Of a stretch of 64,000 bases of DNA, positions 6,562-63,221 are shown piece after piece (position 1 is the stretch's first letter; every line of letters starts with the position of its first letter). A program made the translations under genes and the position numbers. The notes beneath the pieces are model-generated. The model did no database searches and was not told where the DNA came from. It saw nothing but the letters and a program-made list of their open reading frames with translations. Where the stretch lies: NCBI GenBank assembly GCA_009930475.1, contig RZYC01000002.1, forward strand, positions 1,121-65,120. The letters run 5' to 3'. Source of the stretch: Spartobacteria bacterium. Its GTDB lineage: Bacteria > Verrucomicrobiota > Kiritimatiellia > RZYC01.

Positions 6562-6576
6562 TCGTTTGCCTTGCTC

Positions 6577-7464: not shown

Positions 7465-7472
7465 CCTGAAAA

Positions 7473-8942: not shown

Positions 8943-8954
8943 ATCAATAAGCCC

Positions 8955-11057
8955 TTAGGATGGCATAATAATAAACGGCTTCGGCTGATCACCGGTAATC
9001 AAATAGTAAATCGCACTGATGATCATGGGCAGAACCCCGCCCAGCATCTCGCCTGCAATCAACCCGAACATCAAAGGCTTCAATTTCTGATAGAATCCGG
9101 CTCCGCCATACTTGGTCACCGCCATTTTAATCAGCCATCCAATCAGGAAGGACTGGGCAAAACACTTACCGGAATAGGTCGACCACACTAGGAACATAAC
9201 CGGATGGAAAGGCCACTTGGTAAAACGCAGACGCAGTGCAGAGAAGAGCAGCACACAGCCCGCAGCCACGCCAAAAACAATCATACCCTGTTTGTGGGGC
9301 TGAGCACCGGTATAACGAGCCAGCCCCGTTGCCGTTCCGGCGTCCTGCAGCTGGCCCTGTGCTTCGAGGCGCTGCATGTTGGCAATGGTTTCATTGAAAG
9401 GATTCTGCGACTGCTGATTCTGCCATGCCGACAAGTCAATGCCGCGATTATACTGGAAATAAAGCGTCACCGGAATCCCCACACCCAGTCCGACCACCAG
9501 TGCCAAAACAATCATGGCGGCGGAACGGCCGACTTTCACCTTGGTATCGTCAGCCAGTTTCAGGGCATTAACCACAAAAGGCATCAGGGCTTCGCGCGGG
9601 TCGTAAAACAATATGAGACAGAACATGAACATGGTCAGAATGGCCGCCGGCCCCAGTGCTTTCGGCCCCAGCACCGCCAGAATAATCGTTGCCGGCGTGC
9701 CGGCGGTCACAATAAAGAAGACGCCGGTTTCCGCGATCATTCGGCCCATTACCAGATACACCGCCATGGTACACAGACCGAACAGCACCGCAATAGACCA
9801 GGGAAGCCCCGCATAATAGGTGCTGTAAAAGGTAAACAGAATCAGGGAAAGGACAAACAGCCGGGCACCCCAGATCGAGGTCGGCGCAATCTTTTCTTTT
9901 CCGCCCATGCCAAAGGATTTGCGGAAGACCGCCAGATAGTAATAGCGACCGGTATACAACAGCACCAGCAACATGGCGAAATACGCGCCCATATTGAACA
10001 TGTTTTCACGATTGATGCCGAAGGGCCACTGTCCCTGCCACCCGGAATTGGCCACCCCGTACATGGACAGCATACCCGTCAAAGTAATCCATATAAAGGG
10101 TCCGATACCCATGGAAAACGATACGTCCGTGGGCAGGAAAAAGGCGATGGCGATCACTGTGAAGAAAATCGAATAGTACCCGGAAAGGAAGCCGACGCCC
10201 CCGCCCTGTTTAAAGGCTGGAAACAATTCACCCAGCGAACTGAAGTCCACGCCGCTGGGAATCGCCCCCATCAGATAGGATGGGAACCAGACATTGAGGT
10301 AGTTGTAGACATAAATACCGAAGACAATAAACATCGCGACCCAGAAAGAACGATCTTTGAAAACCGGGCTCTCACTGCCGTCCTCATTAGGCAGCAGCGA
10401 CTTGGTAAAAGTCACCAGCGGATAGGGTAAATGCTCGTGATCCACCCATTGCTTGTGCACCACCAGCGATAGACCGAGCAGGCCGAGCCATAGCGATAAA
10501 ATAATCGGCAGCCAGAATTTCATACTGGGCAGCCATGCCTTCCAGGGGATTTCCGAGAAGGCCACACTCTTGTTACCCTCGCCCAGTCCGCGAATAAATC
10601 CGTTCAGCACCGTATCTTCATTCTGCGGGGTCACCTCAGCCAGCATCCCGTCGGGGACCATCTCCATGACGTTCTGCTTTTCCCAGCCCGGTTCGGTTTT
10701 TTCAAAACGATGCGGCATAATCAGCGACGGCGTAAACAGTCGCAGCAGATTGGCTCCGGGAATGGCACAGGCAGGTAGCATGATCACCAGAATCGTCGCA
10801 ATTTCCGCGCGGGTCAGACAGAATCTTCTCCCGAATTTACGTAGCAGCGGATACAGCAGAATCATAAATAAAACCAGCGCCCCATAAATGGATATCGGCA
10901 TATTATTACCGATAAACATCGTCTGGCGCATGATACTATCATTAAAGTAGGTATAACTGGTGACAAATGCCACGCCAAGCAACCCAATCAACACAGCCCT
11001 GATTGACACGAATACAACCTCACTCACATACGATTTATCACCACTCTGCAAACACAC
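8955..11057 (-). CDS. Polytopic integral membrane protein (700 aa), family unknown
   Basis: Hydrophobic helices throughout; no recognisable catalytic motif. It lies 11 nt downstream of the PqqD-like gene and 12 nt upstream of the FtsX gene. The antisense ORF 9204-10430 is rejected. Confidence 0.55.
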   Translation of the reverse strand: MCLQSGDKSYVSEVVFVSIRAVLIGLLGVAFVTSYTYFNDSIMRQTMFIGNNMPISIYGALVLFMILLYPLLRKFGRRFCLTRAEIATILVIMLPACAIPGANLLRLFTPSLIMPHRFEKTEPGWEKQNVMEMVPDGMLAEVTPQNEDTVLNGFIRGLGEGNKSVAFSEIPWKAWLPSMKFWLPIILSLWLGLLGLSLVVHKQWVDHEHLPYPLVTFTKSLLPNEDGSESPVFKDRSFWVAMFIVFGIYVYNYLNVWFPSYLMGAIPSGVDFSSLGELFPAFKQGGGVGFLSGYYSIFFTVIAIAFFLPTDVSFSMGIGPFIWITLTGMLSMYGVANSGWQGQWPFGINRENMFNMGAYFAMLLVLLYTGRYYYLAVFRKSFGMGGKEKIAPTSIWGARLFVLSLILFTFYSTYYAGLPWSIAVLFGLCTMAVYLVMGRMIAETGVFFIVTAGTPATIILAVLGPKALGPAAILTMFMFCLILFYDPREALMPFVVNALKLADDTKVKVGRSAAMIVLALVVGLGVGIPVTLYFQYNRGIDLSAWQNQQSQNPFNETIANMQRLEAQGQLQDAGTATGLARYTGAQPHKQGMIVFGVAAGCVLLFSALRLRFTKWPFHPVMFLVWSTYSGKCFAQSFLIGWLIKMAVTKYGGAGFYQKLKPLMFGLIAGEMLGGVLPMIISAIYYLITGDQPKPFIIMPS

Positions 11058-29393: not shown

Positions 29394-29490
29394 AAAGTTC
29401 CAATGTCTGGAAGTTTTTTCAAAAAAAGTTCCAATCATTGGAACTTTTTGTAAATCCGTCATGGGAAAAGTTCCAATCATTGGAACTTTT
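29394..29490. repeat. Cluster of three REP-like palindromes (BIME-like) between the pfkB-family gene and kdtA
   Basis: Copies at 29394-29420 (variant gttccaatgtctggaag), 29421-29450 and 29466-29490 (both perfect gttccaatcattggaac). An independent GC hairpin acccgcaatgttgcgggt lies at about 29361-29378. ORF 29321-29506 is a translation artefact of these repeats. Confidence 0.75.
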
Positions 29491-29549
29491 AAATGGTTGC
29501 CCCTGATGCGACAGGACGCTATTGTTCGTTTTTTGAATTTTGAGAGTAC

Positions 29550-30881
29550 ATGATGAATAAAACGATGCTCCGGCTGGTTTACAACACCCTTTTCCCTTTG
29601 TGTTTTTTATGTCTTGTGCCGCGCTTTCTGATGAGAATGAAACGGCGCGGCGGCTATAAAAAAGACTTCGGTCAACGCTTCGGGTTATATCGGCCTGATG
29701 TATTGCAGCACCTGACACAGCAACAGAACAGTATCTGGATTCAGGCCGTCAGTGTAGGCGAAATATTTATTGCACTTGAATTCATCGACACCTACCGGAA
29801 GGCCTGCCCTGACGCGCACTTCGTTTTATCCACGAATACATCAACAGCCTATGCCATCGGCAAAAAAAGGGTTTCTTCCCAAGATGCCATTATTTATTTT
29901 CCGCTAGATATGTCCCTGATCATACGTAAGGTTTTTCGAATCATCAGGCCGGCGGCAATCATTCTCGTTGAATGCGAATTATGGCCCAACCTTATTAATC
30001 TCGCCGCACAAAAACATATCCCCACCATGTTATTGAACGGGAGAATGTCGGATCACTCGTTCAGAGGCTACCGAAAATTGCACTGGTTTACCCGGGCTCT
30101 CCTGCAGGATGTTCAGCTCCTGCTGGTTCAGACCCGCGCCGACGCACAACGATTCATTGAACTCGGCGCATCGCCGGAACGCCTTCATATTACCGGTTCA
30201 GCTAAATACGATGTAATCAAACGGGATGTGCCGGGAGAACAGCGTACAGAATCTGCACTGAAACAGATGGGCTGGTCGCCGCAAACCCGCATACTGCTGG
30301 GCGGCTCCACGTGGGATGGCGAAGAAACGATTCTTGCAGAAATCTATGTTGAATTAAAACAAACCTATCCCGACCTGTTGCTGGTGCTCATTCCGCGTCA
30401 TGCAGAACGTCGGAACGCCGTGTGCGCGGTTCTGGATGAACTCCATTTAAAAGTGCTGCGACGTACCGATATGACCGAAACATCGACGCATGAGCGCCCT
30501 GATGTACTGCTTGTGGATACCACCGGCGAGATGAAAAACTTCTTTTCCTGCGCTGATATCATTTTTATTGGCAAGAGCTTAACGCAGAATGGCGGACAAA
30601 ATATCATTGAACCGGCGTTCTATGGAAAAACGGTTATCGTCGGACCGAATATGCAGAATTTCCCCGGTGTTATGATCGATTTCCTTGTGGCAAAAGCAGT
30701 CGTACAAGTGCAGAACAGACAGGAGCTGAAACAGCAATTTCTTCATTTTATGGAAAATCCGGAATCGGGCAAAGCACTGGGACGCAATGCGGCTGCCCTC
30801 GTGGAAAAGAAATCGGGTTCCTTGAAAAAATCTGCCGCATGTATTGCTCAACATATCACTTTGCCTACCCCCGGTGTGTAA
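29550..30881 (+). CDS. kdtA: 3-deoxy-D-manno-octulosonic acid (Kdo) transferase
   Basis: WIQAVSVGE...ILVECELWPNLI... N-terminal motifs of WaaA/KdtA, and a C-terminal GT-B domain. Confidence 0.85.
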   Translation: MMNKTMLRLVYNTLFPLCFLCLVPRFLMRMKRRGGYKKDFGQRFGLYRPDVLQHLTQQQNSIWIQAVSVGEIFIALEFIDTYRKACPDAHFVLSTNTSTAYAIGKKRVSSQDAIIYFPLDMSLIIRKVFRIIRPAAIILVECELWPNLINLAAQKHIPTMLLNGRMSDHSFRGYRKLHWFTRALLQDVQLLLVQTRADAQRFIELGASPERLHITGSAKYDVIKRDVPGEQRTESALKQMGWSPQTRILLGGSTWDGEETILAEIYVELKQTYPDLLLVLIPRHAERRNAVCAVLDELHLKVLRRTDMTETSTHERPDVLLVDTTGEMKNFFSCADIIFIGKSLTQNGGQNIIEPAFYGKTVIVGPNMQNFPGVMIDFLVAKAVVQVQNRQELKQQFLHFMENPESGKALGRNAAALVEKKSGSLKKSAACIAQHITLPTPGV

Positions 30882-32153
30882 ATGGAACGTAAAGTACGTA
30901 AAAACACGATCTCTCTCTGGGTAACGATCATGGTTGTTCTGTTTATCCTGTCGCAAATCGGGCTCGTCGCATACTTTCAAATCCTGCGCGTGGAGAGCAT
31001 AAAGCGAGCGGCGCAAATGGCTGAACAAACGCCGGAAGAATCCATTTCATTGCCAACGCAAACGCCTCCAGTCAATCCAACGGTTCCGCCGGTTGTTCCA
31101 ACACGAAAACCTGCGGCAACCAGCACGCCGCGGCAACCGACGGCTGCTGCAACGGCAACTCCCACCCCCTGGCCTACGTCAACGCCGTCCCCCACTCCTA
31201 CTCCCGCTGCAACGGCAACTCCAACCCCCTGGCCTACGTCAACGCCGTCCCCTACCCCCACAGCGACTGCTTCACCCACCCCCCGGCCCACATCAACACC
31301 TACACCACAACCCACGTCAACCCCGACACCATGGCCCACGTCAACCCCTGCACCAAAACCAACGTTGACCCCGACACCATGGCCCACATGGACTCCTGCA
31401 CCAAAACCCACATGGACGCCCACGCCGCGACCACGTCCCACAGCAACTCCCACACGTCGACCGCGCCCCACCAGAACGCCCATCCCCACGCCAACCCCTA
31501 CGCCTACGCCTACCCCCACGCCCTGGCCCACGCCAACACGTACTCCAAGACCGAGGCCGACCTATACTCCCGTCCCCACCTTGACACCCACACCACTCCC
31601 GCGACCAACCGCAACGCCACAACCAACCAGAAAACCCAGACCCAAACGAACACCCCGGATCTATCTCACTGTCACTCCGGAACCGCGACCAACCAAACGA
31701 TCTCTGCTTGATATTCTGCCCAAAGTCGTAACAGTTCGTCAGCAGCAGATACGCATCGTTTCCGCCGATGAACGACGTTTTCACCCTCAAAAAGACGCCG
31801 ACGAAACGCGTGTACTTACGCTGAAATTTGTCGTTGATCCCGATATCCAATTTATTAAAAATGAAAAAGCGCAGATAGATGTCATATTCTATGATCTGTT
31901 GGCGAACAGAGATAAACCCACCAAATCATGCCGCTTTTCGATCAAGCTCCCCTTGGCGGATGTCATCAGAAAGCAGCAGAGCTGGGTCTTTTCGGTCAAT
32001 GCAAACTATACCATTCCCAAAGGACGCCGCGCACTGGACAAGGCCAAATACGGCGTGGAACCACATTATTATGGTTATGTTGCATCCATTGAATACGGCG
32101 GCGTTATTCAGGACACCCTCTCACGTCCGGATAAGCTACGTACGCTGGAGTAA
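30882..32153 (+). CDS. Membrane-anchored protein with an approximately 250-aa Pro/Thr-rich tandem-repeat linker and a C-terminal globular domain of unknown function
   Basis: N-terminal TM anchor [21 protein letters not shown]. Repeats [16 protein letters not shown].../[11 protein letters not shown].... The ATG directly follows the kdtA TAA (gtgTAAATGgaa). The antisense G/V-rich ORFs 30977-31531 and 31341-31850 are rejected. Confidence 0.6.
31146..31265. repeat. Near-perfect 60-nt tandem duplication (2 copies, 3 mismatches) inside the Pro/Thr linker coding region. The wider region 31100-31700 is a degenerate repeat array.
   Basis: gctgcaacggcaactcccaccccctggcctacgtcaacgccgtcccccactcctactccc repeated. 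Encodes [20 protein letters not shown] twice. Confidence 0.8.
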
Positions 32154-32158
32154 ATAAA

Positions 32159-33007
32159 ATGAATCATTCCATATCGCTTATTCTTGAGGGCGGAGGATTG
32201 CGAGGCATCTATTCCGCAGGCATTCTTGAATGTCTAATGGATGCGCATATCCAGTTTCCTGCAGTTTACGGCGTGTCTATGGGCGCCTGCAATGCCGCCA
32301 ATTTTATTTCGGGGCAAGCAAAACGAAATCGCTGCGTCAGCATTGATTATGTCAATGATCCGCGCTACCTGAGCTTTCGGCGTCTGTTCTCTCACGGGGA
32401 GCTTTTCGGCATGGATTTCATTTTCGATACATTGCCTAATAAACTGAATCTTTTCGATTATGATGCTTTTTTCAAGAATCCAGCACGATTTGTTATCGGA
32501 ACCACGGACATCGTTACCGGTAAAGCCATCTATTACGAAAAAAACAATCAATCTGATATCCTTCGCATTCTACAGGCATCCAGCAGCTTACCGATGATTT
32601 CAAAACCTGTTCATCACGATGGACGCCTCCTCATGGATGGAGGGCTGGCTGATGCCATTCCCCTTGCTAAAAGCATCGAAGACGGGAATACCAAACACGT
32701 CATTATTCTCACCCGCCCCGCATCCTACCGAAAAGAAAAAACGCGCGTTGCCACTTTTATGCCGCTTCTCTACCATCGCTATCCCGGCTTATGCCACTGC
32801 CTTAAAACACGACATATACGCTACAATAAAACACTGGATGATATCGCAGCCCGCGAACAAGCCGACGAGGTATTTGTATTCCGCCCTGAAACTGCTTTAC
32901 GTCCGCGGCGAATAGAACGCAATCAAGAGCTGCTCCATGAAGCGTATGACATCGGCTATCAGCAGGCTAAAAAAGCACTCCCGCTACTACTGGAATTCCT
33001 CAAATAA
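32159..33007 (+). CDS. Patatin-like phospholipase
   Basis: Oxyanion LEGGGLRG, nucleophile elbow GVSMGA, catalytic-dyad Asp in MDGGL. Confidence 0.8.
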   Translation: MNHSISLILEGGGLRGIYSAGILECLMDAHIQFPAVYGVSMGACNAANFISGQAKRNRCVSIDYVNDPRYLSFRRLFSHGELFGMDFIFDTLPNKLNLFDYDAFFKNPARFVIGTTDIVTGKAIYYEKNNQSDILRILQASSSLPMISKPVHHDGRLLMDGGLADAIPLAKSIEDGNTKHVIILTRPASYRKEKTRVATFMPLLYHRYPGLCHCLKTRHIRYNKTLDDIAAREQADEVFVFRPETALRPRRIERNQELLHEAYDIGYQQAKKALPLLLEFLK

Positions 33008-33785
33008 ACGCCTTAACCTGCCCGATAATCTGTTCTGGCTGCTCCACAATCATCATATGAGCCGATATGATGGACACCAAACGGGCATCCGATAACCGTT
33101 CTGCCAAGGCTCTCACATATCCCGCAGGGACTAACAGATCCTTTGTCCCTGCCAATAAAAGGACCGATTGATGTACTTTTGATAACGCACTGCGCACATC
33201 ACAGTGCATTAAAGCCGCAATCTGATTTTCAAAAGCATACAAAGCCTGTACCGGTTTCTGCGACGCCGCAAACGATACCATATCATCCACCAGCGCGCGA
33301 TTTGCCAGTAGAGAATCAGAGAATAACCAAGGCATAATAATCTGAAATAACGCCCCCTGCGACAGGCCGTTCCGCCACAATTGTGCGTTGGTCTGAAAAG
33401 GAAACAAGGCACCAGCACGCAAGAAACTAAACGGATTACACAACACCAGTTTTAAAACTCGTGCAGGGTACTGTGAAGCCATTGACAAGGCCACCGCCGT
33501 TCCCATGGAATGCCCCATTAGCACAGCAGAATCAATCTCCAGTGCGTCCATAAGTCCAATGACATCTGCGGCCATCTGCTCAATGCTGTAGGGTTCTTTG
33601 GGCGACGTTGTCCTGCCAATACCGCGCGGATCAAACCGAATCAGCTGATATGCGGATCTCAATCCGGGCACCATCGCCCCCCAGACTTCATGAGTCGATG
33701 CCAGACCGGGCAGGCAAACAAGTGGAATCCCCTTCCCTTCTTTTTGATAAAACATATCAATTCCATTTACATGTACTGTACTCAT
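33000..33785 (-). CDS. Alpha/beta-fold hydrolase
   Basis: Nucleophile elbow GHSMGT and an HGxP-like N-terminus (LPGLASTHEVW). 261 aa. Confidence 0.7.
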   Translation of the reverse strand: MSTVHVNGIDMFYQKEGKGIPLVCLPGLASTHEVWGAMVPGLRSAYQLIRFDPRGIGRTTSPKEPYSIEQMAADVIGLMDALEIDSAVLMGHSMGTAVALSMASQYPARVLKLVLCNPFSFLRAGALFPFQTNAQLWRNGLSQGALFQIIMPWLFSDSLLANRALVDDMVSFAASQKPVQALYAFENQIAALMHCDVRSALSKVHQSVLLLAGTKDLLVPAGYVRALAERLSDARLVSIISAHMMIVEQPEQIIGQVKAFI

Positions 33786-33827
33786 AGAATTACCTCACAT
33801 AACTTCTCAATTATTAATCTAACCATT

Positions 33828-34787
33828 CTACCAATCAACAAGTTCCCTTACCGCATACAAATGATTCCATCCCCCTTTAAATTTCCGTGAACCGCACGTC
33901 CTTTTGGAACCAAAAGCATCCCGATTCTCCTCAAAAAACGCCTCAACAAATGCCTCGCCGCCCACAACCCGTCCATCGGTAAAATAGCGACAGCGACACA
34001 TCAACCGTTCGAAATCTGTCAGTTTTAACCGCGCTCCCAGTTTTTTTCGTAAATAATCATGATCTGTACACGCCCGTTCAGGATGTCGACGAACCTCATC
34101 ATACATCAAAATACGTTCCAAATAGAACGTAGATACATCATTCCACTCACGTAGTGCAGCTTCCATCGTCATGACCAGCTTCCGAATCCCCCGCTGTGCC
34201 GTGGCCAACCCTCTCATCGCCTCGCCAAAACCACAATACTTGTAATGCTGAGGCTCAGTCACCATACCAGCACGCACAGGATTCATCTCTATATAGGCGG
34301 ACACCACACGCAACGGCGTACCCTCTTCGACCCATACACTTTTAAAACGGTCATCCCATAAGGTTCCCTTCCGCTGATGCACCCGGTTATACCAACGAGC
34401 AAAACGCTGCTTAACCTGCTTCATAAATTCGCTGATATCGTGCATTCGGCGCACATACCGCAGCCGGTCTGCCTCAACAGATGCATCATCCCACATAGAC
34501 CACATCTCATACAATGCAGCTAACTCATCATCCGAATAAAAACACGCCATCCGACACCGAAACACGTCATCTGAAACAACTTCGTCGCGATCCGGCTCTT
34601 CCAGCAGCAAATGCACATGATTCGACATAACTGCGTACGTCAACACATGCACACCCGTAAATCCCTCCACCCGCCGAATCAATGCACGCATATGTTCTTT
34701 CTCGACCTCCCCAAACAGCAGCAACTGCCCCGCAGTTCGACTCATGCAGTGATAATACGCCTTCTCTTTTCGTTTGATTCGTTTCAT
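33828..34787 (-). CDS. IS200/IS605-family Y1 HUH transposase, RAYT-like (REP-associated tyrosine transposase), with a long C-terminal extension (319 aa)
   Basis: HUH motif NHVHLLLE. RAYT-type block GTLWDDRFKSVWVE...LRVVSAYIEMNPVRAGMV, which includes the candidate catalytic Tyr. Paralog of the 54049-55029 gene. Confidence 0.7.
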   Translation of the reverse strand: MKRIKRKEKAYYHCMSRTAGQLLLFGEVEKEHMRALIRRVEGFTGVHVLTYAVMSNHVHLLLEEPDRDEVVSDDVFRCRMACFYSDDELAALYEMWSMWDDASVEADRLRYVRRMHDISEFMKQVKQRFARWYNRVHQRKGTLWDDRFKSVWVEEGTPLRVVSAYIEMNPVRAGMVTEPQHYKYCGFGEAMRGLATAQRGIRKLVMTMEAALREWNDVSTFYLERILMYDEVRRHPERACTDHDYLRKKLGARLKLTDFERLMCRCRYFTDGRVVGGEAFVEAFFEENRDAFGSKRTCGSRKFKGGWNHLYAVRELVDW

Positions 34788-34915
34788 GCCAGGAATAATT
34801 ATTTAAATACTTCCGAATGTCAACCTGAAAATTATTATTAACCTGTTTTATATTCTTTATACCGCAAAAAAACCATGGGATATCCCATGGTTGTATATTA
34901 AATGATTATGGCTAC

Positions 34916-36697
34916 CTACGCATCTTCGCGGACACTAAATTCCAGCTTCCATTTATCGTCAGAAACAGTGCTGACGCACCAGAGTTCGAACATTCCCAGT
35001 TCAGTGATGCGCGATTCGAATGTGACGGGAACGAATTCATCATCCACTTTTTCCGATTTGGGGAGCGTGGCCTCCATCGAATCAGATTCTTCCAACTCGT
35101 TAGAATTCCAGCGGGGCAGGAGCGCGCCCGCAACATCTTCTTTGCGTGTGTTGGAGCTGAAAAACCGGAACTTCACGGGCTCTCCAACAACTAGGCCAAT
35201 GTCGCCACCGGGAACCTGACACGCCGTACCTTCTTCCATGCCACACGGTACAACGCACAACGCTTTTAGTGGACGCGGGGCTCCGGGAATGGCCAATCCT
35301 GCTGTTTCGATGCCAATATAATAGGCATGGGCTGTTCCGCCACGAATGCGAATTCCTCCACTTTGTTTGGTAAATCCGTAAAAGGCCGCTCCGCGAGCTA
35401 CCGCGTAATCGAGGTCTTTGTTACTGGTGATCTGCTGAATCTGACTATCGCTGTACCAAGACTGCAGAACAGACAACACCTTATCACGCAAGGCATTGGA
35501 TTTCAAAACGCCACCATTGAACAACACATGGGTCGGCTTGGCCGGCTGTCCACCTGCTCCATGACTGGATAAAAAAGATGCTAAGTGCCGTGTTATGGCG
35601 GCATCTGATTCGAATGGCAGTCCCAGTTCGCGAAAGCCCGAAGCCATCCTACGCGCCGGTCTATCCGAAAGAGTACATTCGGGGGCAAATCCATCAATCA
35701 ATAACTGTGTTATTTCATCGCGGTTTAAATCAACAGAAATACTACCGCCAATCAGTTTGCTGCCACGTCCGAGAACTGTCACAGGAAACGTCGTGTCGCC
35801 ACCTTCAGTCAACAGGCTTTCCTTAGCACTGCGACAGGAATGCCACAGAGCAACAGACTGCCAAGCATCAACTTCTGTTCCTTTCTCGGCAAAGGCTTCG
35901 CGGGCATAATGCGCCAGCGTCAAGTCCATGTTATCTCCGCCTACGAGAATATGATCCCCCACAGCGACGCGCTGTAACTGTAAATCACCTTCTTCGCTGG
36001 CAATCTGAACAAGGGTAAAATCAGTAGTTCCGCCACCCACATCGCAAACAAGCAGCGAATCGCCCTCATCGAGATTTTTACGCCAGTCGTCACCGACATC
36101 GGCCAGCCAGGCATAAACGGCGGCCTGCGGTTCTTCCAACAGGACAAAATCCGTCGGAAATCCTGCAGCGAGGGCTGCTTCATGGGTGAGTTCACGGGCA
36201 CTGACATCGAAGGACGCAGGAACCGTCAACACTACCTGCTGATCAGCAAAGGCCTCATCATTATGGGCATCATTCCAAGCATCCACCATATGTGACAGAT
36301 AGATACGGGTCGCATCCAGCGGAGAAATCTTCGCAATATCCTCCGGAGCATTCCACGGCAGAATCGCATCCTTACGATCTGCCTTATTGTAGCATAACCA
36401 GGATTTAGCTGCGGCCACGGTACGAATCGGATTATCTGCCGACTGTTTGCGTGCCCATGTTCCTACGACATAAGCAGGATCGGTGTCCCACGGAAGGGAA
36501 TACGTTCCTTCTGTTTTTTCATTTTCTAGCGGAATATAGAGGAACGAGGGTAGTTCATTCTTCGATTCCACGGTTCCGGGTGCCGTGATTTGAGGGATGG
36601 GCAATAACTCGACACCGGCCTCGGCATCATCCATATTGCGAAATGCAACCACACTGTTTGTTGTACCTAAGTCGATACCAATCGCGTATTTTTTCAT
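34916..36697 (-). CDS. Hsp70-family ATPase (HscC/DnaK-like, atypical substrate-binding domain)
   Basis: MKKYAIGIDLGTTNSVVAF (phosphate-1), DVGGGTTDFTLV (phosphate-2). The ATG is the complement of 36695-36697, with a GGAGG-like site upstream. The ORF-track N-terminal extension of 97 aa is rejected. Confidence 0.85.
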   Translation of the reverse strand: MKKYAIGIDLGTTNSVVAFRNMDDAEAGVELLPIPQITAPGTVESKNELPSFLYIPLENEKTEGTYSLPWDTDPAYVVGTWARKQSADNPIRTVAAAKSWLCYNKADRKDAILPWNAPEDIAKISPLDATRIYLSHMVDAWNDAHNDEAFADQQVVLTVPASFDVSARELTHEAALAAGFPTDFVLLEEPQAAVYAWLADVGDDWRKNLDEGDSLLVCDVGGGTTDFTLVQIASEEGDLQLQRVAVGDHILVGGDNMDLTLAHYAREAFAEKGTEVDAWQSVALWHSCRSAKESLLTEGGDTTFPVTVLGRGSKLIGGSISVDLNRDEITQLLIDGFAPECTLSDRPARRMASGFRELGLPFESDAAITRHLASFLSSHGAGGQPAKPTHVLFNGGVLKSNALRDKVLSVLQSWYSDSQIQQITSNKDLDYAVARGAAFYGFTKQSGGIRIRGGTAHAYYIGIETAGLAIPGAPRPLKALCVVPCGMEEGTACQVPGGDIGLVVGEPVKFRFFSSNTRKEDVAGALLPRWNSNELEESDSMEATLPKSEKVDDEFVPVTFESRITELGMFELWCVSTVSDDKWKLEFSVREDA

Positions 36698-36764
36698 GAG
36701 AAACCTCCATATAAAGGTGAGAGGATATATAAATTGAATTGAATGGGAAAACGGAAGCGTCTGC

Positions 36765-37277
36765 TTAGACTTCCACTTCCACAGGAGCCGCGACAAAGAT
36801 AGAATCTTCGCGACCAGTCCACTGAGGTAATTCACACCGGGCGGCTTTCCAACCGTGATGACACACTTTCCCTTTATAGGGCGGCTCACCGGTAACATTG
36901 CCAGTGAGATGATAGGCAGCAGGATCAAACCCGGCAGGCACTTCGATAGAAGCCCCCTCGGCCTTGTCCGATTGCGGCTGAAAATCAAAGAATCGTTTTA
37001 GTGTGGCGGCACAGCCACGATGCACATCACGCACAGCGGCACCAATCTGGGCATCATTATACTCGTCGAGCGACTCCATCATAAAGTCGATGAAACGCCC
37101 TTCACGTTGCATTGCTGACAACACCGTTAATGCATCACTGCGATGAACAGGCTCTTTTTCCGGAAGAACTTCCACTGCCGGCTCCGATTCTTTTTTCATC
37201 AGTTCCTGCACCTGCTGCGCGAACGCGGCATTGCCCAGCACCTTGAACATCGCTTTAAAAGCTAAACCTAAACTCAT
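36765..37277 (-). CDS. Hypothetical protein (possibly DUF2760), upstream partner of the Hsp70 gene
   Basis: 170 aa, no TM, conserved-looking Cys/His patch KGKVCHHGWKAARC. It ends 68 nt upstream of the Hsp70 start on the same strand. Confidence 0.4.
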   Translation of the reverse strand: MSLGLAFKAMFKVLGNAAFAQQVQELMKKESEPAVEVLPEKEPVHRSDALTVLSAMQREGRFIDFMMESLDEYNDAQIGAAVRDVHRGCAATLKRFFDFQPQSDKAEGASIEVPAGFDPAAYHLTGNVTGEPPYKGKVCHHGWKAARCELPQWTGREDSIFVAAPVEVEV

Positions 37278-37428
37278 TTTTTAAACTCCATTTTTATTAC
37301 CGTGTGTTCGGACTCCCAGTAATACGAAAATCTGCCCGAACCATCTCAAGGCCCCCAACGGTATGTAGCACCTCCATAAAATAAAGTCTCTTTTTAAAAA
37401 AAATAAAGGAAGTTACACGCATAAAATT

Positions 37429-37464
37429 CACAACCTGTTCTTAATCATCAAAAAACAGGTTGTG
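37429..37464 (-). terminator. Candidate intrinsic terminator hairpin (11-bp perfect stem CACAACCTGTT / AACAGGTTGTG, 14-nt loop) downstream of the 37503-38801 gene
   Basis: Perfect inverted repeat about 40 nt after the stop, followed on the minus strand by a T-rich tract. Confidence 0.3.
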
Positions 37465-37502
37465 TTAAAAAAGTGACTTTTAGCGTATCCGATTCCTGAT
37501 TC

Positions 37503-38801
37503 TTACTCATCCATCAAAATGAGATAGGGAACATAAGCTCCGGCAGCACCCTGCGTCACGTCCACACTATCGATTAATCCGTCAAAGAATCGGTCATAAA
37601 AACAGATCGATCCCTCACGTTTCACACTGGTATCGTTCTTAAAGACATTCATTACTAGAGACTGATCGCCCTTGAATTTATAGCCATAACCATATCCATT
37701 CTGATAGCCATATCCTAGAGAATGCCCTCTGGTTGCTTCAGAGAACGTGATCCATGAGACCATCTGTTGCGCATACCAAGTACAGGCCGAACCATAATCC
37801 ACAGAAACAGTGAAGCTTCCGCCATTTTTCGATTTCGTCACGCTTTTCGGGCTAAACTTGAATTCACATGCGGTTTGATCAACATCAAAGGTCTGATCCT
37901 TAAACAGAACACTGCCGCTGCGCTGTGAACGCGAATCATTGGCAAAGACGGACAACTCTACCGTTTGAGGTCCAGTGAAGGCATAATTATATCCGTAGCT
38001 ATAACCATAATTCGTGGATTTCATGGCCACCCAGCTCAGCGTTTTCACATACCATTCACAATTGCTACCAGCGGTGATCGTTACACCCACCGTCGATGCT
38101 TCACTTGGAGCGGCATAACTTGAGGGATTCATCGTAAACGGCACTGCAGGCTGAGTTATCGTCACTGTTTTTCCTGCAATAATGCAGGAACCAGAACGTG
38201 CAGCACATCCTTCATTACTTTCGAGATGGATCAGTAGATTGTTTACTGTTCCGGTAAAGACCGTTTGCACCGATTTTAAAGAAATCCAATCGGACACGGG
38301 AATAAACTGCCACTCGCAGGATTCATTGGATGTGCCCACCTTAATCGTCACATCCTGCGCGATCGATTTACTGCATTCAATGTTCTGAGGCGTAACCGTC
38401 GAGGTGCAGACGGCCACTTCCTGAGTCAGCGTAAATACAGCATCCTTAACCGTCACTGTTCCCACGCGATTCGACGCAGATGAATTTTCAAAAGCTATCA
38501 AATGAACGGTGCCGGAGCCTTGATATCCATATCCAGCAGTATAAGTCGCATTATCAACAGAAGAAATGGTGATCCAAGATTCAGACTCGGCTGGAATCCA
38601 ATATAGGTCAGGTGCATCAATGCCCACATTAAATGAAGGGGTTCCTCCAAAAGCATCTACAGAATCCGATGCCGGATCAAGACTGATACCAGCACGTCCA
38701 TACGCTAGAGATGACAACATCATAACGACACCCAACGACACGACAAACTTCAGCGAATTCATCCGATTCATATATCTATCTCCTATTAGTAACCATCTCA
38801 A
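37503..38801 (-). CDS. Secreted protein with three internal approximately 100-aa repeats (Gly/Tyr-rich motif, beta-rich), function unknown
   Basis: Signal peptide MNSLKFVVSLGVVMMLSSLAYG. The three-fold motif is listed in the finding on this gene. The exact start is uncertain: MNRMNSLKF is an internal start and a TTG start may be in use. Confidence 0.5.
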   Translation of the reverse strand: MRWLLIGDRYMNRMNSLKFVVSLGVVMMLSSLAYGRAGISLDPASDSVDAFGGTPSFNVGIDAPDLYWIPAESESWITISSVDNATYTAGYGYQGSGTVHLIAFENSSASNRVGTVTVKDAVFTLTQEVAVCTSTVTPQNIECSKSIAQDVTIKVGTSNESCEWQFIPVSDWISLKSVQTVFTGTVNNLLIHLESNEGCAARSGSCIIAGKTVTITQPAVPFTMNPSSYAAPSEASTVGVTITAGSNCEWYVKTLSWVAMKSTNYGYSYGYNYAFTGPQTVELSVFANDSRSQRSGSVLFKDQTFDVDQTACEFKFSPKSVTKSKNGGSFTVSVDYGSACTWYAQQMVSWITFSEATRGHSLGYGYQNGYGYGYKFKGDQSLVMNVFKNDTSVKREGSICFYDRFFDGLIDSVDVTQGAAGAYVPYLILMDE

Positions 38802-46894: not shown

Positions 46895-47473
46895 TCAATG
46901 TTTGATGAATCGATGCAGTCGGCCTATCAGCCATACAGGAAAGACAACGCATGCCACCACACCCAGTTCGCTGAAAAACGTTCTGACATGTTGCCATGAA
47001 AGAAAGCCATCCGACCAGCGAACACCGGAAAACAAAACTATGGGTGACTGATAACGCTGTGTTGATACGGGCCAAAACAACATAACGCCACGGCCAAAAC
47101 AGCAATAATCCAACATTACGTGTACCGCATAACCTGTAACGACCAATATACTCCAAGCCCGTCCCGTTCCCCTTCGCAACGTCTCTGCTGTCATACCTGC
47201 TATCAACGCAACAACACACGCGACGAGCAGACTGTGCATCCCCTGATTGTGATAATCGCGCATATTTCTGCATAGCATCCCTATGGCGGCATCTATGTCG
47301 GGCAGCATGGAAAAAAATACGCATAAAAATAACAGCGTCCATGCTGTCCCAAAATATTTTTGCAGCCGCTCCGGGTTAACAAATCGTCGTATACCCATAA
47401 ATAGTCCGCAACCAGCGGCCACATGAATGACCGGCGAGGGCATCAGGATCTCCGGCGAAAAAGCGATTGCCAA
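46895..47473 (-). CDS. Membrane-bound metal-dependent hydrolase-like protein (YdjM/DUF457-like)
   Basis: Four to five TM helices with conserved His/Asp residues typical of DUF457. Weak assignment. Confidence 0.4.
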   Translation of the reverse strand: MAIAFSPEILMPSPVIHVAAGCGLFMGIRRFVNPERLQKYFGTAWTLLFLCVFFSMLPDIDAAIGMLCRNMRDYHNQGMHSLLVACVVALIAGMTAETLRRGTGRAWSILVVTGYAVHVMLDYCCFGRGVMLFWPVSTQRYQSPIVLFSGVRWSDGFLSWQHVRTFFSELGVVACVVFPVWLIGRLHRFIKH

Positions 47474-48252
47474 AAACTGCGACGTGACGCTGCTGTTCGA
47501 TATGCAGTCATCGGCTCCAGCTGTTCAATATCTTCCCCCTCCAAAATGTGACGTGGATTGCCGTCAAAAAGCAGCGCAGCGGCTTCTTCTCCTCTGACAG
47601 CAACGACGACCGAACGCGCATTACTAAGTACGGGAGGCCGTGTTTTTGCATTATGGGTGTCGCTGGCAATGACGTGTATCCATCCCTGCTGCAACCAGTG
47701 AGACAGCATACCATGCATTCCGTTGCGTTGCTCCTCCACAAGTGAACCTGCGGTAACCTGAATGACCGCACCCTGTGCTACAGAGCGTTCGATCAACGCA
47801 TCTGACTGATCCTGCAAAAACATGCGGAGCCGCTCAGGATGGGCTAATACGGGCACGATGTCATTGAGTTGACACTGAAATATCAGGTCGCCCAAAGCAT
47901 CTGAAAATTCACCTACATGCGGAAATTCCAACAAAAAATATCTGGGTTTCGCTCCATAAAAAGGTATGACGCTGTTTCGAAGCTGCTGGATCACATCGGG
48001 TACCACACGGATCTCGCCCCCGGCGTGCAGCTGTAATGGAATATGCTGGTCATGAAGTGTGCACCTCAATGCATCCAATGCGCGTGATACATCATCCATT
48101 GACGGATTTCCTGCATCACACAGCATGTGCGGCGTCGCCACCATTTCCGTGATACCGTCCGATACAGCTATGCGTGCCATCGCGACACTCATGTCCATGT
48201 TCTTCGCACCGTCATCTATCCGAGGAAGAATATGGGCATGAATATCAATCAT
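47443..48252 (-). CDS. PHP-family protein-tyrosine phosphatase (CpsB/YwqE type)
   Basis: MIDIHAHILPRIDDGA...ATPH motifs of Mn-dependent CpsB phosphatases. Confidence 0.75.
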   Translation of the reverse strand: MIDIHAHILPRIDDGAKNMDMSVAMARIAVSDGITEMVATPHMLCDAGNPSMDDVSRALDALRCTLHDQHIPLQLHAGGEIRVVPDVIQQLRNSVIPFYGAKPRYFLLEFPHVGEFSDALGDLIFQCQLNDIVPVLAHPERLRMFLQDQSDALIERSVAQGAVIQVTAGSLVEEQRNGMHGMLSHWLQQGWIHVIASDTHNAKTRPPVLSNARSVVVAVRGEEAAALLFDGNPRHILEGEDIEQLEPMTAYRTAASRRSFWQSLFRRRS

Positions 48253-48282
48253 AATGACGCGATTTCATTCTGTGAAAGCGAG

Positions 48283-50433
48283 CTATGCTCTGTCCGCTTT
48301 TTCGTCCTCTTCATATTTGTAATATTTGCCATAATAGCGGCCATAATAGTAGCCACCGTAATAACCACGGCTTTTCGGCTCATCTATATTGTTCAGGATA
48401 ACACCAAGCAATCGGATATTTGTGGCCTGATGAATACGATCCGCGACGCTTTTTGCCGCCTGTTTTGGGGTGGAGAAACTGCGGACAACCAACATAATAC
48501 CGTCGATCATTTTGCCGATTACCATGGAATCCACTAGATTATGTGACGGGGGGGTATCAAAAACAACAAAATCAAAACGTTCTTTTACGTGAGCAACCAA
48601 ACGTGCAAATTCAGGTTTTTCAAGCAATTCCACCGGATGGGGCGGAATCGGACCGCACGGCATAAAATAGAGATTTTCCACTTCCGTCTGCATGATGACA
48701 TCATCTAGGCGTACTGAATCATCCCCGATAAGAATGTTCGATAATCCTTTTTTATTATCCATGCCAAACACCTTGTTCAATCGGGGCTTACGCATATCGG
48801 TATCCACAAGCAGTGTTCGTTTTCCTACCTGAGCCTGAGCCACAGCCAAGTTAATGGAAATAATAGATTTCCCTTCCTGCGGAAAAGTACTGGTAACGGC
48901 AACGGCGTGGAGTGCGGTAGTGGTTTCTCTGAACCCCAGCACGGTTCGTAGCGCACGAAACGCTTCGGCAAACTGACTTCGATGGTTCCCCAATGCGGAA
49001 AGATCCGCCGCCCCTTTGCCTTTCTCATCCGTTTCGGCACTGGGCACACCAACCAACAAATCCGTCTTCAACATATGACGTACGTCAAAATCGCTTTTCA
49101 CGGTCATATCCATATAATCGACGAAGAAAGCCAACCCCACAGCCATACCCATCGCCAGAACAATCGTAATCGCCAGATTTCTCATTTTTCGCGGCCATGA
49201 TGGATTTTGCGGAACCAGTGCCTTGGAAATGACGAATACATTTTCACCCTGCCGGCTCATTCTGTTCACATCAATTTCCTGAATACGTTTGATAATACGG
49301 TTGTAGGCACTTTCTATGGTCGTTCTGCTCTGTTGTAGCAGCTGATACTCTGAATTCAGTTCCGCCATGCGAAACACTTCCAGCTTATGCTCATTCAAGG
49401 CCTCTCTTGCCAGACGCTCTTCTTCTATTGCCTGATTATATTGTATGCCCAGTGACTGCAAAATAGATGATGCCTCAAAGGCAATTTTCATCTGAAGGGT
49501 TTGCATTTCATTGCGAAGGGCGGCCAGCTGCGGATGACTCTCACCCAGTCGTTCCTGCTTCTGCGAATATTCTGTTTCCAACCGCGCTAAATCAATTTTT
49601 AGCGAGCGAATAACGGGTGAATCAATAACATCAGGCAGGCTGTCGACCGACACCCCTTCTTCCACTGCGTGATCTGCCGACTGTTTTTTAGCCTGCAGCC
49701 CCATCCGCAGCGGTTCTATCTTAGTCAGATTGCGGCTCAGATCCTGAAGACGCTCGATGATAATATTCTGCGTTTTCTCAAAAGAAACCACATTATTTTT
49801 TACCATAAAATCCTGTAAAGCACGCGTTGATACATCCAGATCCTGCCGAAGCGAATCAGCCTGGCGCCGCAACTCTTCAATCCCCTCTTCTGAAATGCCC
49901 TGACGGCGTTTACGAGTTTCGTCAAGATAAGATTCAATTACGGCATTCACAATGCGGGCGGCGTACACAGGATTGGGATGACTGATCGATACATCTATAA
50001 GCGACGTTCGTCTTAAGATGCTTATTTCCAATGAGTCCGCCAGTGCTTTAACCGGATTTTTCATTTCACCGAAAACTGGATCATTGGCCAAATTCGCTTT
50101 AACAAAGGTAGCTTCCAACACAGGCTGAGACTTCAGCAGCTCCGCCTGCGTGTTCATAAATTCCGCCTGCTGCGACATGCGACCATCCTCCATCGCATCC
50201 TGCATCCCCGTCAGGTTTACCGAAGAGGCTTCAACAAGCACGCGGCTCGTCGCCTCATAAAGAGGCGTACGAGTCCACGTATAAATAATACCCAGGATAA
50301 GTATAATGCTGAATACTGCAATGACCATGGGAAGTCTGCGCAGAACAATGCCTACATAATCCCAGAGATGAATCTCTGATTCATCTCCACCTGCCTGCTG
50401 AAAATCGACATCGTCCTGATCCATCTGATTCAT
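48283..50433 (-). CDS. Polysaccharide co-polymerase / BY-kinase (Wzc-like) with a C-terminal Tyr-rich tail
   Basis: Wzz-type periplasmic coiled coil. Cytoplasmic Walker A TSTFPQEGKS. Tail YYGGYYYGRYYGKYYKYEED. Confidence 0.85.
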   Translation of the reverse strand: MNQMDQDDVDFQQAGGDESEIHLWDYVGIVLRRLPMVIAVFSIILILGIIYTWTRTPLYEATSRVLVEASSVNLTGMQDAMEDGRMSQQAEFMNTQAELLKSQPVLEATFVKANLANDPVFGEMKNPVKALADSLEISILRRTSLIDVSISHPNPVYAARIVNAVIESYLDETRKRRQGISEEGIEELRRQADSLRQDLDVSTRALQDFMVKNNVVSFEKTQNIIIERLQDLSRNLTKIEPLRMGLQAKKQSADHAVEEGVSVDSLPDVIDSPVIRSLKIDLARLETEYSQKQERLGESHPQLAALRNEMQTLQMKIAFEASSILQSLGIQYNQAIEEERLAREALNEHKLEVFRMAELNSEYQLLQQSRTTIESAYNRIIKRIQEIDVNRMSRQGENVFVISKALVPQNPSWPRKMRNLAITIVLAMGMAVGLAFFVDYMDMTVKSDFDVRHMLKTDLLVGVPSAETDEKGKGAADLSALGNHRSQFAEAFRALRTVLGFRETTTALHAVAVTSTFPQEGKSIISINLAVAQAQVGKRTLLVDTDMRKPRLNKVFGMDNKKGLSNILIGDDSVRLDDVIMQTEVENLYFMPCGPIPPHPVELLEKPEFARLVAHVKERFDFVVFDTPPSHNLVDSMVIGKMIDGIMLVVRSFSTPKQAAKSVADRIHQATNIRLLGVILNNIDEPKSRGYYGGYYYGRYYGKYYKYEEDEKADRA

Positions 50434-50490
50434 TAATTTATCCTGCTATCCTTTTAAATATTAATCACTTACAAAAGCACCAAACTGGGA

Positions 50491-51582
50491 TCAATTATCA
50501 TCCAAGCGGTAAGTAAATGTGAAGACACCTCTAAATACATCCCATGCTTCAGCCATAACGAACTTGCCACCCGACTGCGGCACATGGATAACGTCATCCT
50601 GATGAACGAAAATGTTAGGAGCTTCGCCACGTTCAATTGCTGTAATACTGACAGGTATGCGCTGTTCGTTTCCATTGTCGAAACGACGGATAATGTAACA
50701 TCCGCTTTGATCCGCATCCCACTGCAGACCGCCGGCAAGGGCCACGGCTTCAAGAATGCGCAGCGATCTTGAAATCGTATATCCGCCCGGGTTTGCGACT
50801 TTCCCATAAACAAAGAAACTCGGTGCACGAGGAATCTGAATCACGTCGCCGCCCTGCAAAATAGCATTGTATTCGTAGTTTCCTTTTTCAAGCAGGTCTT
50901 CCAAATCAATGGCAATACGCAGTTGTTTACCCTTTTCATCAGGACGCAGTACATAGGCCGCACGTCCGGCATCAGCTGACGGACCGCCCGCCAGTGTCAA
51001 CATATCCAGCAGTGTCGTCACATTCTGATGAATAGCATAGACGCCTGGAAGATTGACCGCACCAATAACAGAAATACGCAAACTGCGATATTCTTTAACC
51101 GAAACGGCGACACGGGGGTTTTGTATCAGATTACTGGACTCAAGTTCTTCCACCAGTGCCTGCTGAATTTCTTTAACGCTCTTATTAACGACATTCATCG
51201 CCCCGATAGATGGCAGAACAATGTCGCCAGTTTCTGATACGCGGAATTCCAGCGTTTCGGTTTTTTCTCCCATCTGCCATTCGAAAACGGAAATCTCCAA
51301 CACATCATCAGGCCCCACGCGATAATCTTCATCCATGATGCTTTTTAACTTTTGCGTCTGACGGATCCATTCACGACTTTGTTCATCACTGAACTGCATA
51401 GGATCATCCGATGCAGTCATCGTATACGAACTAGTCTGCAATTTACCTGGACCAGATGCGGCACAACCGGCAAACATAGCAATGCCAGCTAAAGCTAGAA
51501 TTCCAGAAAGAATTCTACATGAATTTTTTATATAACCATTATCACTCATCGGGGCTCCTTCGTTGTTTAGGAATACAGACAC
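50491..51582 (-). CDS. Outer-membrane polysaccharide export protein (Wza-like), lipoprotein
   Basis: Lipobox MFAGC, PES motif YRVGPDDVLEISVF, SLBB repeats. Confidence 0.8.
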   Translation of the reverse strand: MSVFLNNEGAPMSDNGYIKNSCRILSGILALAGIAMFAGCAASGPGKLQTSSYTMTASDDPMQFSDEQSREWIRQTQKLKSIMDEDYRVGPDDVLEISVFEWQMGEKTETLEFRVSETGDIVLPSIGAMNVVNKSVKEIQQALVEELESSNLIQNPRVAVSVKEYRSLRISVIGAVNLPGVYAIHQNVTTLLDMLTLAGGPSADAGRAAYVLRPDEKGKQLRIAIDLEDLLEKGNYEYNAILQGGDVIQIPRAPSFFVYGKVANPGGYTISRSLRILEAVALAGGLQWDADQSGCYIIRRFDNGNEQRIPVSITAIERGEAPNIFVHQDDVIHVPQSGGKFVMAEAWDVFRGVFTFTYRLDDN

Positions 51583-53871: not shown

Positions 53872-54048
53872 TCATAAACACGAGCCATACTCCACACCCG
53901 TCACGTCACATGGAAAACCGATGCAGAGGATGCTATTTTGAGTACGCCAAATCAAATTAAAAATGGAAATATGCCTATGCATATATTAATCTGACTTATT
54001 ATTAATTTCTCCTTGACTTACAATCACACACACGCCACATTCACAGAC

Positions 54049-58176: not shown

Positions 58177-58251
58177 GGGCGATTAACTCAGCGGAAGAGT
58201 GCTACCTTCACACGGTAGAAGTCACAGGTTCGAACCCTGTATCGCCCACCA
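58177..58251 (+). tRNA. tRNA-Val (anticodon CAC), CCA encoded
   Basis: Acceptor GGGCGAT/ATCGCCC, D-stem ACTC/GAGT, anticodon stem CTACC/GGTAG, loop TTCACAC, T-stem ACAGG/CCTGT, T-loop TTCGAAC. All stems are Watson-Crick. Confidence 0.85.
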
Positions 58252-63210: not shown

Positions 63211-63221
63211 ACGGTCGTTTT

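Follow-up and report, generated by a model that had tools for sequence, protein, structure and literature searches.

Bitopic membrane proteins with proline-rich spacers and immunoglobulin (Ig)-like ends are familiar, and linkers rich in proline and threonine ('PT boxes') are known from secreted glycoside hydrolases and carbohydrate-binding module (CBM) proteins such as the cellulases of Cellulomonas fimi, where they are extended, protease-resistant and sometimes O-glycosylated. In the Verrucomicrobiota and Kiritimatiellota, envelope biogenesis has to our knowledge been little studied and the envelope is poorly understood, and many accessory factors known from Proteobacteria are, as far as we know, not found there. 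Here, we describe a gene in a 64,000-nucleotide stretch (positions 1,121 to 65,120, hereafter the window) of contig RZYC01000002.1 from a Spartobacteria bacterium (GenBank assembly GCA_009930475.1). The gene directly follows kdtA, which codes for the Kdo transferase, and its product resembles TonB in architecture, with a Pro/Thr spacer that joins a single transmembrane (TM) helix to a C-terminal Ig-like beta-sandwich.

The open reading frame (ORF) at 30882-32153 on the plus strand codes for 423 residues from the first possible start after an in-frame stop. Its ATG abuts the kdtA stop without a gap (TAAATG; GTGTAAATGGAA), as had been claimed in an earlier reading of the window made from the letters alone (hereafter the sequence-only reading). 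The C-rich low-complexity repeat within the gene also yields long overlapping ORFs in other frames and on the opposite strand. However, only the plus frame of 30882-32153 unites a TM helix, a linker and a conserved folded domain, and this ORF is a genuine gene coding for a bitopic inner-membrane protein. The protein consists of three parts, i.e., the N-terminal TM helix, a disordered Pro/Thr stretch of ~225 residues and a C-terminal fold of ~133 residues. In the full-length AlphaFold2 (AF2) model, computed from alignment A3, residues 8-48 form a helix (pLDDT >90 over about residues 10-40), residues 49-274 a coil without secondary structure (pLDDT ~46-60), and residues 290-420 a compact domain with pLDDT mostly >90. 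Hydropathy, the AF2 models and the Pfam and NCBIfam searches support the envelope protein proposed by the sequence-only reading, with its single N-terminal TM helix, long unstructured spacer and folded C-terminus of ~130 residues. The gene, its parts and its two plus-strand neighbours are:

29550..30881, plus strand: kdtA/waaA (Kdo transferase), 443 residues, by Pfam and NCBIfam
30882..32153, plus strand: target gene, short-form member of a TM helix-linker-beta-sandwich family without annotation
30903..31025, plus strand: N-terminal helix, residues 8-48, by AF2 (pLDDT >90) and hydropathy
31026..31703, plus strand: Pro/Thr-rich disordered spacer, residues 49-274, by composition and pLDDT (~46-60)
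31743..32141, plus strand: C-terminal Ig-like beta-sandwich, residues 288-420, by AF2 model and conserved columns
32159..33007, plus strand: patatin-like phospholipase, by Pfam (Patatin, E=1.2e-26, plus DUF6363)

Exact-sequence look-up in protein collections returned no record for the target protein and none for the KdtA of the window. The target is effectively missing from protein databases because the public gene call on a truncated contig (L014 1558-1923, equal to window ~30977-31342, minus strand) chose the wrong strand and took a reverse-strand ORF rich in Gly and Val; a KdtA with a start five codons later than in the window is present on a 1.9-kb Logan contig. Apart from the window, the only public copies of the target are two short-read Logan contigs of run SRR8327731, which match window 29420-31342 and 31321-37800, respectively, at 100% identity. 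This run sampled dairy-wastewater stabilisation ponds (PMC8929167).

The C-terminal domain, its family and their topology

When the C-terminal domain was modelled alone from a 55-sequence alignment, a structure prediction that the sequence-only reading had proposed as a check, AF2 returned a confident seven-stranded Ig-like beta-sandwich with one additional short helix (pLDDT 90, pTM 0.81). The domain matched no Pfam (E<=0.1) and no NCBIfam model, nothing better than E=0.44 was found for it in a sequence profile search of the PDB, and the 55 family domains gave no convincing match to Pfam at E<=10. Among 5.8 billion proteins, word-indexed searching with the domain gave no match, and its profile version four matches only. 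Homologues were obtained by an exhaustive phmmer comparison with 1.84 billion cluster representatives, which gave 68 proteins at E<1e-3 (best 2.7e-13, ~30% identity), almost all with the matched domain at the C-terminus or close to it; a 2081-residue repeat protein (P0136), seemingly a spurious match, was excluded. A metagenome scan for relatives used a three-sequence alignment.

Four columns of the 55-sequence alignment are invariant (Y104, G126, P144 and L147) and six nearly so (R38, F64, D66, P107, G109 and R111), and the target holds all ten. The family motifs are R (DEMR), F.D (FYD), Y..P.G.R (Y.VPKG.R, listed as Y.IPKG.R for the target), G (YYGY) and P..L (ARP..L). In a six-frame search with the family profile A1 the target scored 119 bits (E=1.6e-35) and was the single family member in the 64-kb window, and it has the layout of the family with a TM segment at residue 12, a linker of ~225-250 residues and the domain at residues 288-420 of 423. 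With Foldseek, the PDB yielded generic Ig-like sandwiches only, at TM-scores <=0.47, namely GH2 Ig-like domains, the N-domain of TXNIP/arrestin, Amuc_1102, ApaG and the O-antigen/carbohydrate-binding domain of Wzt. As judged by sequence conservation and predicted structure, the C-terminal domain is a real, conserved and undescribed family of an ordinary fold class.

The family is seen in Kiritimatiellia-like and Verrucomicrobia-like contigs, and the target is a stripped-down short form of it. In most members a cytoplasmic FHA domain stands before the TM-linker-sandwich module, which often includes a periplasmic TPR segment: of 66 scanned relatives, 39 have the FHA domain, which also matches Yop-YscD_cpl, N-terminal of the TM helix, and many have TPR repeats. 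The FHA domain is a bona fide one of the GarA/FhaA type, its closest counterparts being mycobacterial. Neither FHA nor TPR was matched in the target, which shares the lack of FHA with the short forms P0121, P0126, P0133, P0149, P0161, P0173 and P0186, and in the target and its closest relatives only ~2-20 residues are cytoplasmic.

A hydropathy scan found one TM segment in the target, at residue 12, with a hydrophobic core of ~25 residues (about residues 12-36) after an 11-residue basic tail, and basic residues stand just before the TM helix in most family members. This single helix is located at about residues 112-119 in the FHA forms and at residues 3-24 in the short forms including the target. 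FHA domains bind phospho-threonine in the cytoplasm, and all parts past the TM helix should therefore be periplasmic; and because the same helix lies ~115 residues into the FHA-type relatives, it is not a cleaved signal. For the target we thus infer, from these relatives and the positive-inside rule, an N-in, C-out topology in which the helix would act as a signal anchor. In line with this, no match was found that would assign the C-terminal domain to a known cytoplasmic family, which the sequence-only reading had named as the finding that would speak against it, and the FHA-bearing relatives put the domain in the periplasm.

In roughly half of the members, a conserved Gln or Glu lies midway along the TM helix (in the target within window 30915-30989), as seen in P0121, P0126, P0133, P0161, P0173, P0122, P0134, P0157 and others. 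Every kdtA-linked short form has Q-x8-FQ in this helix, and many FHA forms have LL.E. Polar or acidic residues buried in this way hint at a partner within the membrane, as in TonB, ExbD or TolR.

Pairing with kdtA and the genomic neighbourhood

The KdtA of the window matches Pfam PF04413 (Glycos_transf_N, E=7.6e-58) and the NCBIfam model NF004388 for lipid IV(A) Kdo transferase (E=1.6e-99, below the model's equivalog cut-off). Its best named homologues, at 48-52% identity, come from metagenome-assembled genomes (MAGs) of Kiritimatiellae/Verrucomicrobia and from Tichowtungia and Pontiella, which marks the source as a divergent bacterium of the Kiritimatiellia-like kind. A contig scan with this KdtA gave nothing but chance pattern matches, from Negativicutes and at 31-32% identity. 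In the subclade of short forms closest to the target, kdtA is located immediately upstream and on the same strand in all four loci, with overlapping or abutting genes in three of them:

Window: kdtA-to-gene junction with a 0-nt gap
L022 (P0121): junction with an ATGA overlap
L024 (P0133-like gene): junction with an ATGA overlap
L105 (P0126; L105/L106): junction with a 68-nt gap

The KdtA proteins of the three other loci are only 48-50% identical to that of the window, and the genes flanking the pair vary, with a pfkB kinase, a PAS histidine kinase or AlaRS upstream and a patatin, a serine dehydratase or GH16 downstream. Since the pair is kept despite these reshuffled flanks, mostly with coupled stop and start codons, the arrangement provides reasonable evidence of a functional link, and this conserved gene order suggests that the link is to lipopolysaccharide (LPS) or outer-membrane biogenesis. 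The coupling to kdtA noted in the sequence-only reading is thus conserved throughout the subclade, while the LPS role that it had attached to it continues to be suggested from gene order.

The patatin gene starts 5 nt past the stop of the target, and on the plus strand between the two no terminator-like site was found, the counts of the promoter and terminator scan being no better than those in shuffled sequence; to judge from the sequence, the patatin gene is probably part of the same transcript. Further downstream in the window follow an alpha/beta hydrolase and a Y1 transposase, and the genes downstream of the family member differ from these in L022 and L105.

The slot after kdtA is also occupied by other genes. 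L015 (4758-9475) and L016 (1398-6115) belong to a related MAG of the same pond sample, and behind their kdtA come genes for Amuc_1102-like, PilM-like and Amuc_1100-like proteins, so that a different small beta-sandwich envelope protein, from genes of the 'pili-like'/MUL2 locus of Akkermansia, holds this position. In Tichowtungia (L017), a Peptidase_S74 gene follows kdtA.

Other neighbours recur beside members of different subclades. A divergent prolyl-tRNA synthetase (ProRS) gene lies directly upstream of family members in L018 (6366-8012), L023 (8377-9816) and L025 (2683-4065), and a DUF4388/PatA_N (PATAN) gene immediately downstream of a family member in two distant subclades (L018 8888-11698; L040 6378-7055). 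In the former, where it starts 4 nt past the family member, its product is fused to a receiver domain and a Ser/Thr kinase; in the latter, a soil clade with the same arrangement in L032, L062 and L082, its start overlaps the stop of the family member and an Amidase_3 gene lies two genes on. In L107 (4803-7050), the start of P0173 overlaps by 8 nt the end of a gene for a MacB_PCD/FtsX (LolC/E-like) permease, with a gene for an LpxL-type lipid A acyltransferase nearby, which is another envelope-lipid context for the family. At the P0149 locus there was no informative neighbour.

In the remainder of the window, two genes of the IS200-like Y1 transposase family, of ~320-340 residues, are located at 33828-34787 (minus strand) and 54013-55029 (plus strand), and the unrelated locus L023 also has two similar 320-residue Y1 transposase copies. 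An atypical Hsp70-like ATPase with only a partial HSP70/MreB match is encoded at 34916-36988 (minus strand), just downstream of a DUF2760 gene that was called on the Logan contig L104 (5445-5957). The minus-strand cluster at 1762-11057, with a 1599-residue protein carrying a single FtsX permease domain, an ABC ATPase, a second FtsX protein and a 700-residue DUF6785/DUF6784 protein, looks by its domain content like an unusual MacB/Lol-like ABC system. A polysaccharide export set with a Wza-like Poly_export/SLBB protein, a Wzz/tyrosine-kinase-like protein and a CpsB phosphatase is located at 47443-51582 (minus strand), and beyond it, at 58432-63561 (minus strand), a gene for a 1709-residue protein with one weak fn3 match only. 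An Rfam scan of the window gave one tRNA (58177-58248) and no rRNA.

The Pro/Thr spacer and its DNA repeats

Between residues 56 and 285, 142 of 230 residues are Pro (76) or Thr (66), i.e., 62%, and in all frames of the 64-kb window the spacer is the sole stretch with at least 55% Pro+Thr over 40 residues. The Pro/Thr linker described in the sequence-only reading is real, but its length is ~225 rather than 250 residues; the peptide repeats, including the units PTSTPTPQ and WPTWTPAPK, were found as described. At the level of DNA, Tandem Repeats Finder (TRF) and direct comparison resolve the following repeats:

31137-31196 and 31197-31256, plus strand: two tandem 60-nt units (20 residues each), 88% identity
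31273..31417, plus strand: tandem array of 24/48-nt units (8-residue units PTSTPTPQ / WPTSTPAPK / PTLTPTP / WPTWTPAPK and others), by TRF
31476..31522, plus strand: short (PT)n micro-repeat, by TRF at periods of 6, 12 and 18 nt

The two 60-nt units differ by seven mismatches, and no tested register gives fewer. Five of the seven are synonymous third-position changes and two fall within one codon (A->P), and 19 of the 20 residues are conserved between the two peptides. The difference of only 3 nt reported earlier is true for a 51-nt core but not for the full units. Likewise, the repeats themselves are real but not near-identical, with 88% identity in the 60-nt units and 84% matches in the array, for which TRF gives a period of 48 with 2.6 copies (score 184) or a period of 24 with 4.8-5.5 copies and 72-73% matches. 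As the changes are mostly synonymous and the peptide has been kept, the duplication looks older and conserved as peptide rather than freshly expanded. While a tandem duplication is indeed seen, the recent expansion that had been postulated for it is weakened, seven of 60 nt being different and five of these seven changes synonymous, and the substitution pattern also weakens the case for slippage-driven variation of repeat length. The 48-nt array is where both Logan contigs end (L014 at 31342 and L104 at 31321), and there is no second assembly that spans the repeat.

Across the family the linker is 76-293 residues long (median ~196) and its composition is not conserved, a Pro/Thr-rich linker being present only in the target and P0149; in varying thus in length and composition it behaves as a spacer. 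If they were wholly in the polyproline-II conformation, the 225 residues of the target would, at 0.31 nm for each residue, extend up to ~70 nm; the actual distance between its ends would be shorter, and even then the spacer would, on this model, easily be long enough to cover a periplasm.

Possible roles and comparison with described systems

The reading that we tentatively prefer, and to which we give a little less than an even chance, is that the target is a periplasm-spanning tether or sensor, TonB-like in architecture, which is made together with KdtA and linked to LPS or outer-membrane biogenesis. The 11-residue basic tail would remain in the cytoplasm, and the TM helix, with its mid-membrane Gln and terminal Phe-Gln, would anchor the protein at the inner membrane, the site of KdtA and of lipid A-core assembly. 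The ~225-residue spacer would project into the periplasm with the 133-residue sandwich at its tip, and as a flexible-to-extended stalk it could let the sandwich reach a partner, which might be LPS or the inner leaflet of the outer membrane, peptidoglycan or an outer-membrane protein. Co-produced with the Kdo transferase, the target would work in LPS/outer-membrane biogenesis or surveillance, which is the likeliest process because the pairing with kdtA is conserved. From its architecture, an inner-to-outer-membrane tether is plausible, the ligand as well as the role in LPS biogenesis being speculative. The envelope-related neighbours in other subclades, i.e., the LolC/MacB-type permease, the LpxL-type acyltransferase and Amidase_3, were counted in favour of this reading.

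A number of observations weigh against it. The generic fold matches, with TM-scores of at most 0.47, point to no function. Only four kdtA-linked loci are available, whose arrangement may reflect shared ancestry rather than selection, and the pairing is confined to the short-form subclade. Other subclades adjoin ProRS, a DUF4388/PatA_N protein or unrelated genes, and given these varied neighbours a tie to LPS does not extend to the whole family. In addition, kdtA in L015/L016 and in Tichowtungia is followed by other genes, with no family member nearby. A wider proposal, that the sandwich is a new envelope domain of the Planctomycetes-Verrucomicrobia-Chlamydiae (PVC) type whose owners form a trans-envelope system, with most members linking cytoplasmic Ser/Thr-phosphorylation, as read by FHA, to the outer envelope, and with the kdtA-coupled short forms as periplasm-spanning rulers, tethers or LPS-assembly factors, appears unlikely to us as it stands.

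Alternatively, the protein might belong to a module for envelope signalling or for the cell wall that has nothing to do with LPS. The family would then couple cytoplasmic Ser/Thr-phosphorylation, sensed through FHA, to an event in the periplasm, for instance division or the remodelling of peptidoglycan, and the target would be a tail-less paralogue whose position after kdtA was inherited without functional meaning. The 39 of 66 members with an FHA domain closest to the mycobacterial GarA/FhaA type are in line with such a module, as are the fusion of response regulator, PatA_N and protein kinase 4 nt downstream in L018, the DUF4388/PatA_N gene next to the soil clade members with Amidase_3 two genes on, and the lack of kdtA linkage outside the short-form subclade. 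However, the target and its closest relatives have no FHA and only ~2-20 cytoplasmic residues, and the pair with kdtA outlives the reshuffling of both flanks, with three of four junctions overlapping or abutting; we therefore regard this explanation as doubtful. That the protein is a surface-exposed or secreted glycan binder, with the N-terminus as export signal, the Pro/Thr stretch as a possibly O-glycosylated stalk and the sandwich as a CBM, seems improbable, even though GH2 Ig-like domains and the O-antigen-binding domain of Wzt are among its top fold matches and organisms of the Kiritimatiellia type are polysaccharide degraders. The hydrophobic segment of ~25 residues has no obvious signal-peptidase site, the position of the helix ~115 residues into the FHA-type relatives is incompatible with a cleaved signal peptide, and the fold matches themselves do not exceed a TM-score of 0.47. 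Furthermore, the target has no Pfam match to a CBM or a glycoside hydrolase (GH) at E<=0.1, and the family at E<=10 only one stray weak match (BetaGal_dom3, E=0.035, one of 55 members).

The layout of FHA domain, TM helix and periplasmic part and the matches to Yop-YscD_cpl also recall SctD of type III secretion systems (T3SS), and Amuc_1102 (7dsz) is among the fold matches (E ~4e-3, TMq 0.41). The target might accordingly be an accessory of a pilus or secretion system, similar to PilP, GspC or SctD or related to Amuc_1102/MUL2A, in which an inner-membrane-anchored sandwich docks on an outer-membrane secretin. The succession of kdtA, Amuc_1102-like, PilM and Amuc_1100 genes in L015/L016 could be taken in support, and so could the DUF4388/PATAN neighbours, since this domain interacts with type IV pilus motors (bioRxiv 10.1101/2021.06.11.447907). 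But no secretin, PilM, pilin or T3SS gene was found beside any inspected family member or among the scanned window ORFs of at least 200 residues, and the comparison with Amuc_1102-like proteins gave an hhalign probability of 1% and ~0 bits in hmmsearch, with PF28178 not matched, all of which makes such an accessory quite improbable. Hardly credible, finally, is a spurious or mis-assembled ORF arising from the low-complexity C-rich repeat. Several overlapping ORFs do cross the repeat in other frames, the public call on the truncated L014 took the reverse strand, and short-read contigs break in the repeat, the copy number at 31285-31417 resting on one assembly. Yet the TM helix, the linker and a conserved domain that is modelled with confidence and keeps every family-invariant residue all lie in one frame, homologues share this layout, including the Pro/Thr-rich linker in P0149, and on either side of the repeat two public contigs agree with the window at 100% identity.

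Whatever its partner, the C-terminal domain, which lacks annotation in Pfam, NCBIfam and PDB, offers a tangible candidate for an envelope factor specific to these lineages, because it is widespread in Verrucomicrobiota/Kiritimatiellota, a long spacer invariably ties it to the inner membrane, and in one subclade its gene stays fixed to that of the Kdo transferase. Through the majority form with its FHA domain, Ser/Thr-kinase signalling would in addition be connected with the periplasm. In practical terms, the repeat of the target breaks short-read assemblies.

With respect to known systems, the majority form of the family resembles SctD/YscD of T3SS and the FhaA-type regulators of mycobacteria, as it combines a cytoplasmic FHA domain (Pfam FHA, Yop-YscD_cpl; 39 of 66) with one TM helix and periplasmic domains. 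The target, however, is without FHA, the periplasmic part consists of a disordered linker, with or without TPR in the family, and an Ig-like sandwich instead of ring-building motifs, and T3SS genes were found in none of the inspected loci. With the PT-box linkers the spacer shares its composition and its repetitive DNA, but it joins a membrane anchor to a non-catalytic sandwich and exceeds a typical PT box in length about tenfold, and no GH or CBM module flanks it in a Pfam search at E<=0.1. Proteins of the zinc-ribbon-TM-linker-DUF3426 and DUF4352 (YjhA, 3cfu) types likewise combine a small module in the cytoplasm with a single TM helix, a linker of low complexity and, at the C-terminus, an Ig-like sandwich of unknown function; the matches to DUF3426 (E=0.041, one of 55 members) and 3cfu (E=0.44) are marginal, not significant and no evidence of homology.

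Amuc_1102/MUL2A of Akkermansia muciniphila (PDB 7dsz, PF28178), which belongs to the pili-like locus Amuc_1098-1102 (PMC5332112, PMC13174399), is also a small beta-sandwich envelope protein from the same superphylum, and Amuc_1102-like genes occupy the same slot directly downstream of kdtA in L015/L016. The Foldseek match of the target domain to 7dsz is weak, with a root-mean-square deviation of ~7 A, and the Amuc_1102-like proteins differ in having a short N-terminal signal and no long linker. PF28178 was matched neither by the target nor by the 55 family domains, and PilM, Amuc_1100 and secretin genes were not found in the window scans around the target. A homology considered on the basis of the shared slot and the motifs V.F.YQGK....SRPE and V.VYY.G.LQD..ARP is not supported by the profile comparison, in which the hhalign probability of 1% was obtained over 20 columns.

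In TonB, too, a short cytoplasmic tail is followed by one N-terminal TM anchor with a conserved polar intramembrane residue, a long proline-rich periplasmic spacer and a small C-terminal domain. The differences are that the target domain of ~133 residues is a seven-stranded Ig-like sandwich and not the alpha/beta fold of TonB_C, that its spacer consists of Pro/Thr whereas that of TonB is made of Glu-Pro/Lys-Pro, and that family relatives carry FHA and TPR modules, which TonB never does. Neither the target (E<=0.1) nor the 55 family domains (E<=10) match PF03544 (TonB_C), and a Pfam scan of 36 ORFs of the window gave no ExbB/ExbD or TolQ/TolR. Membership of the TonB family was rejected in view of the missing TonB_C and the different fold, the resemblance being architectural only. 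Set beside these systems, the target is not a new kind of system, and its function is one that we infer for a familiar type of bitopic envelope protein.

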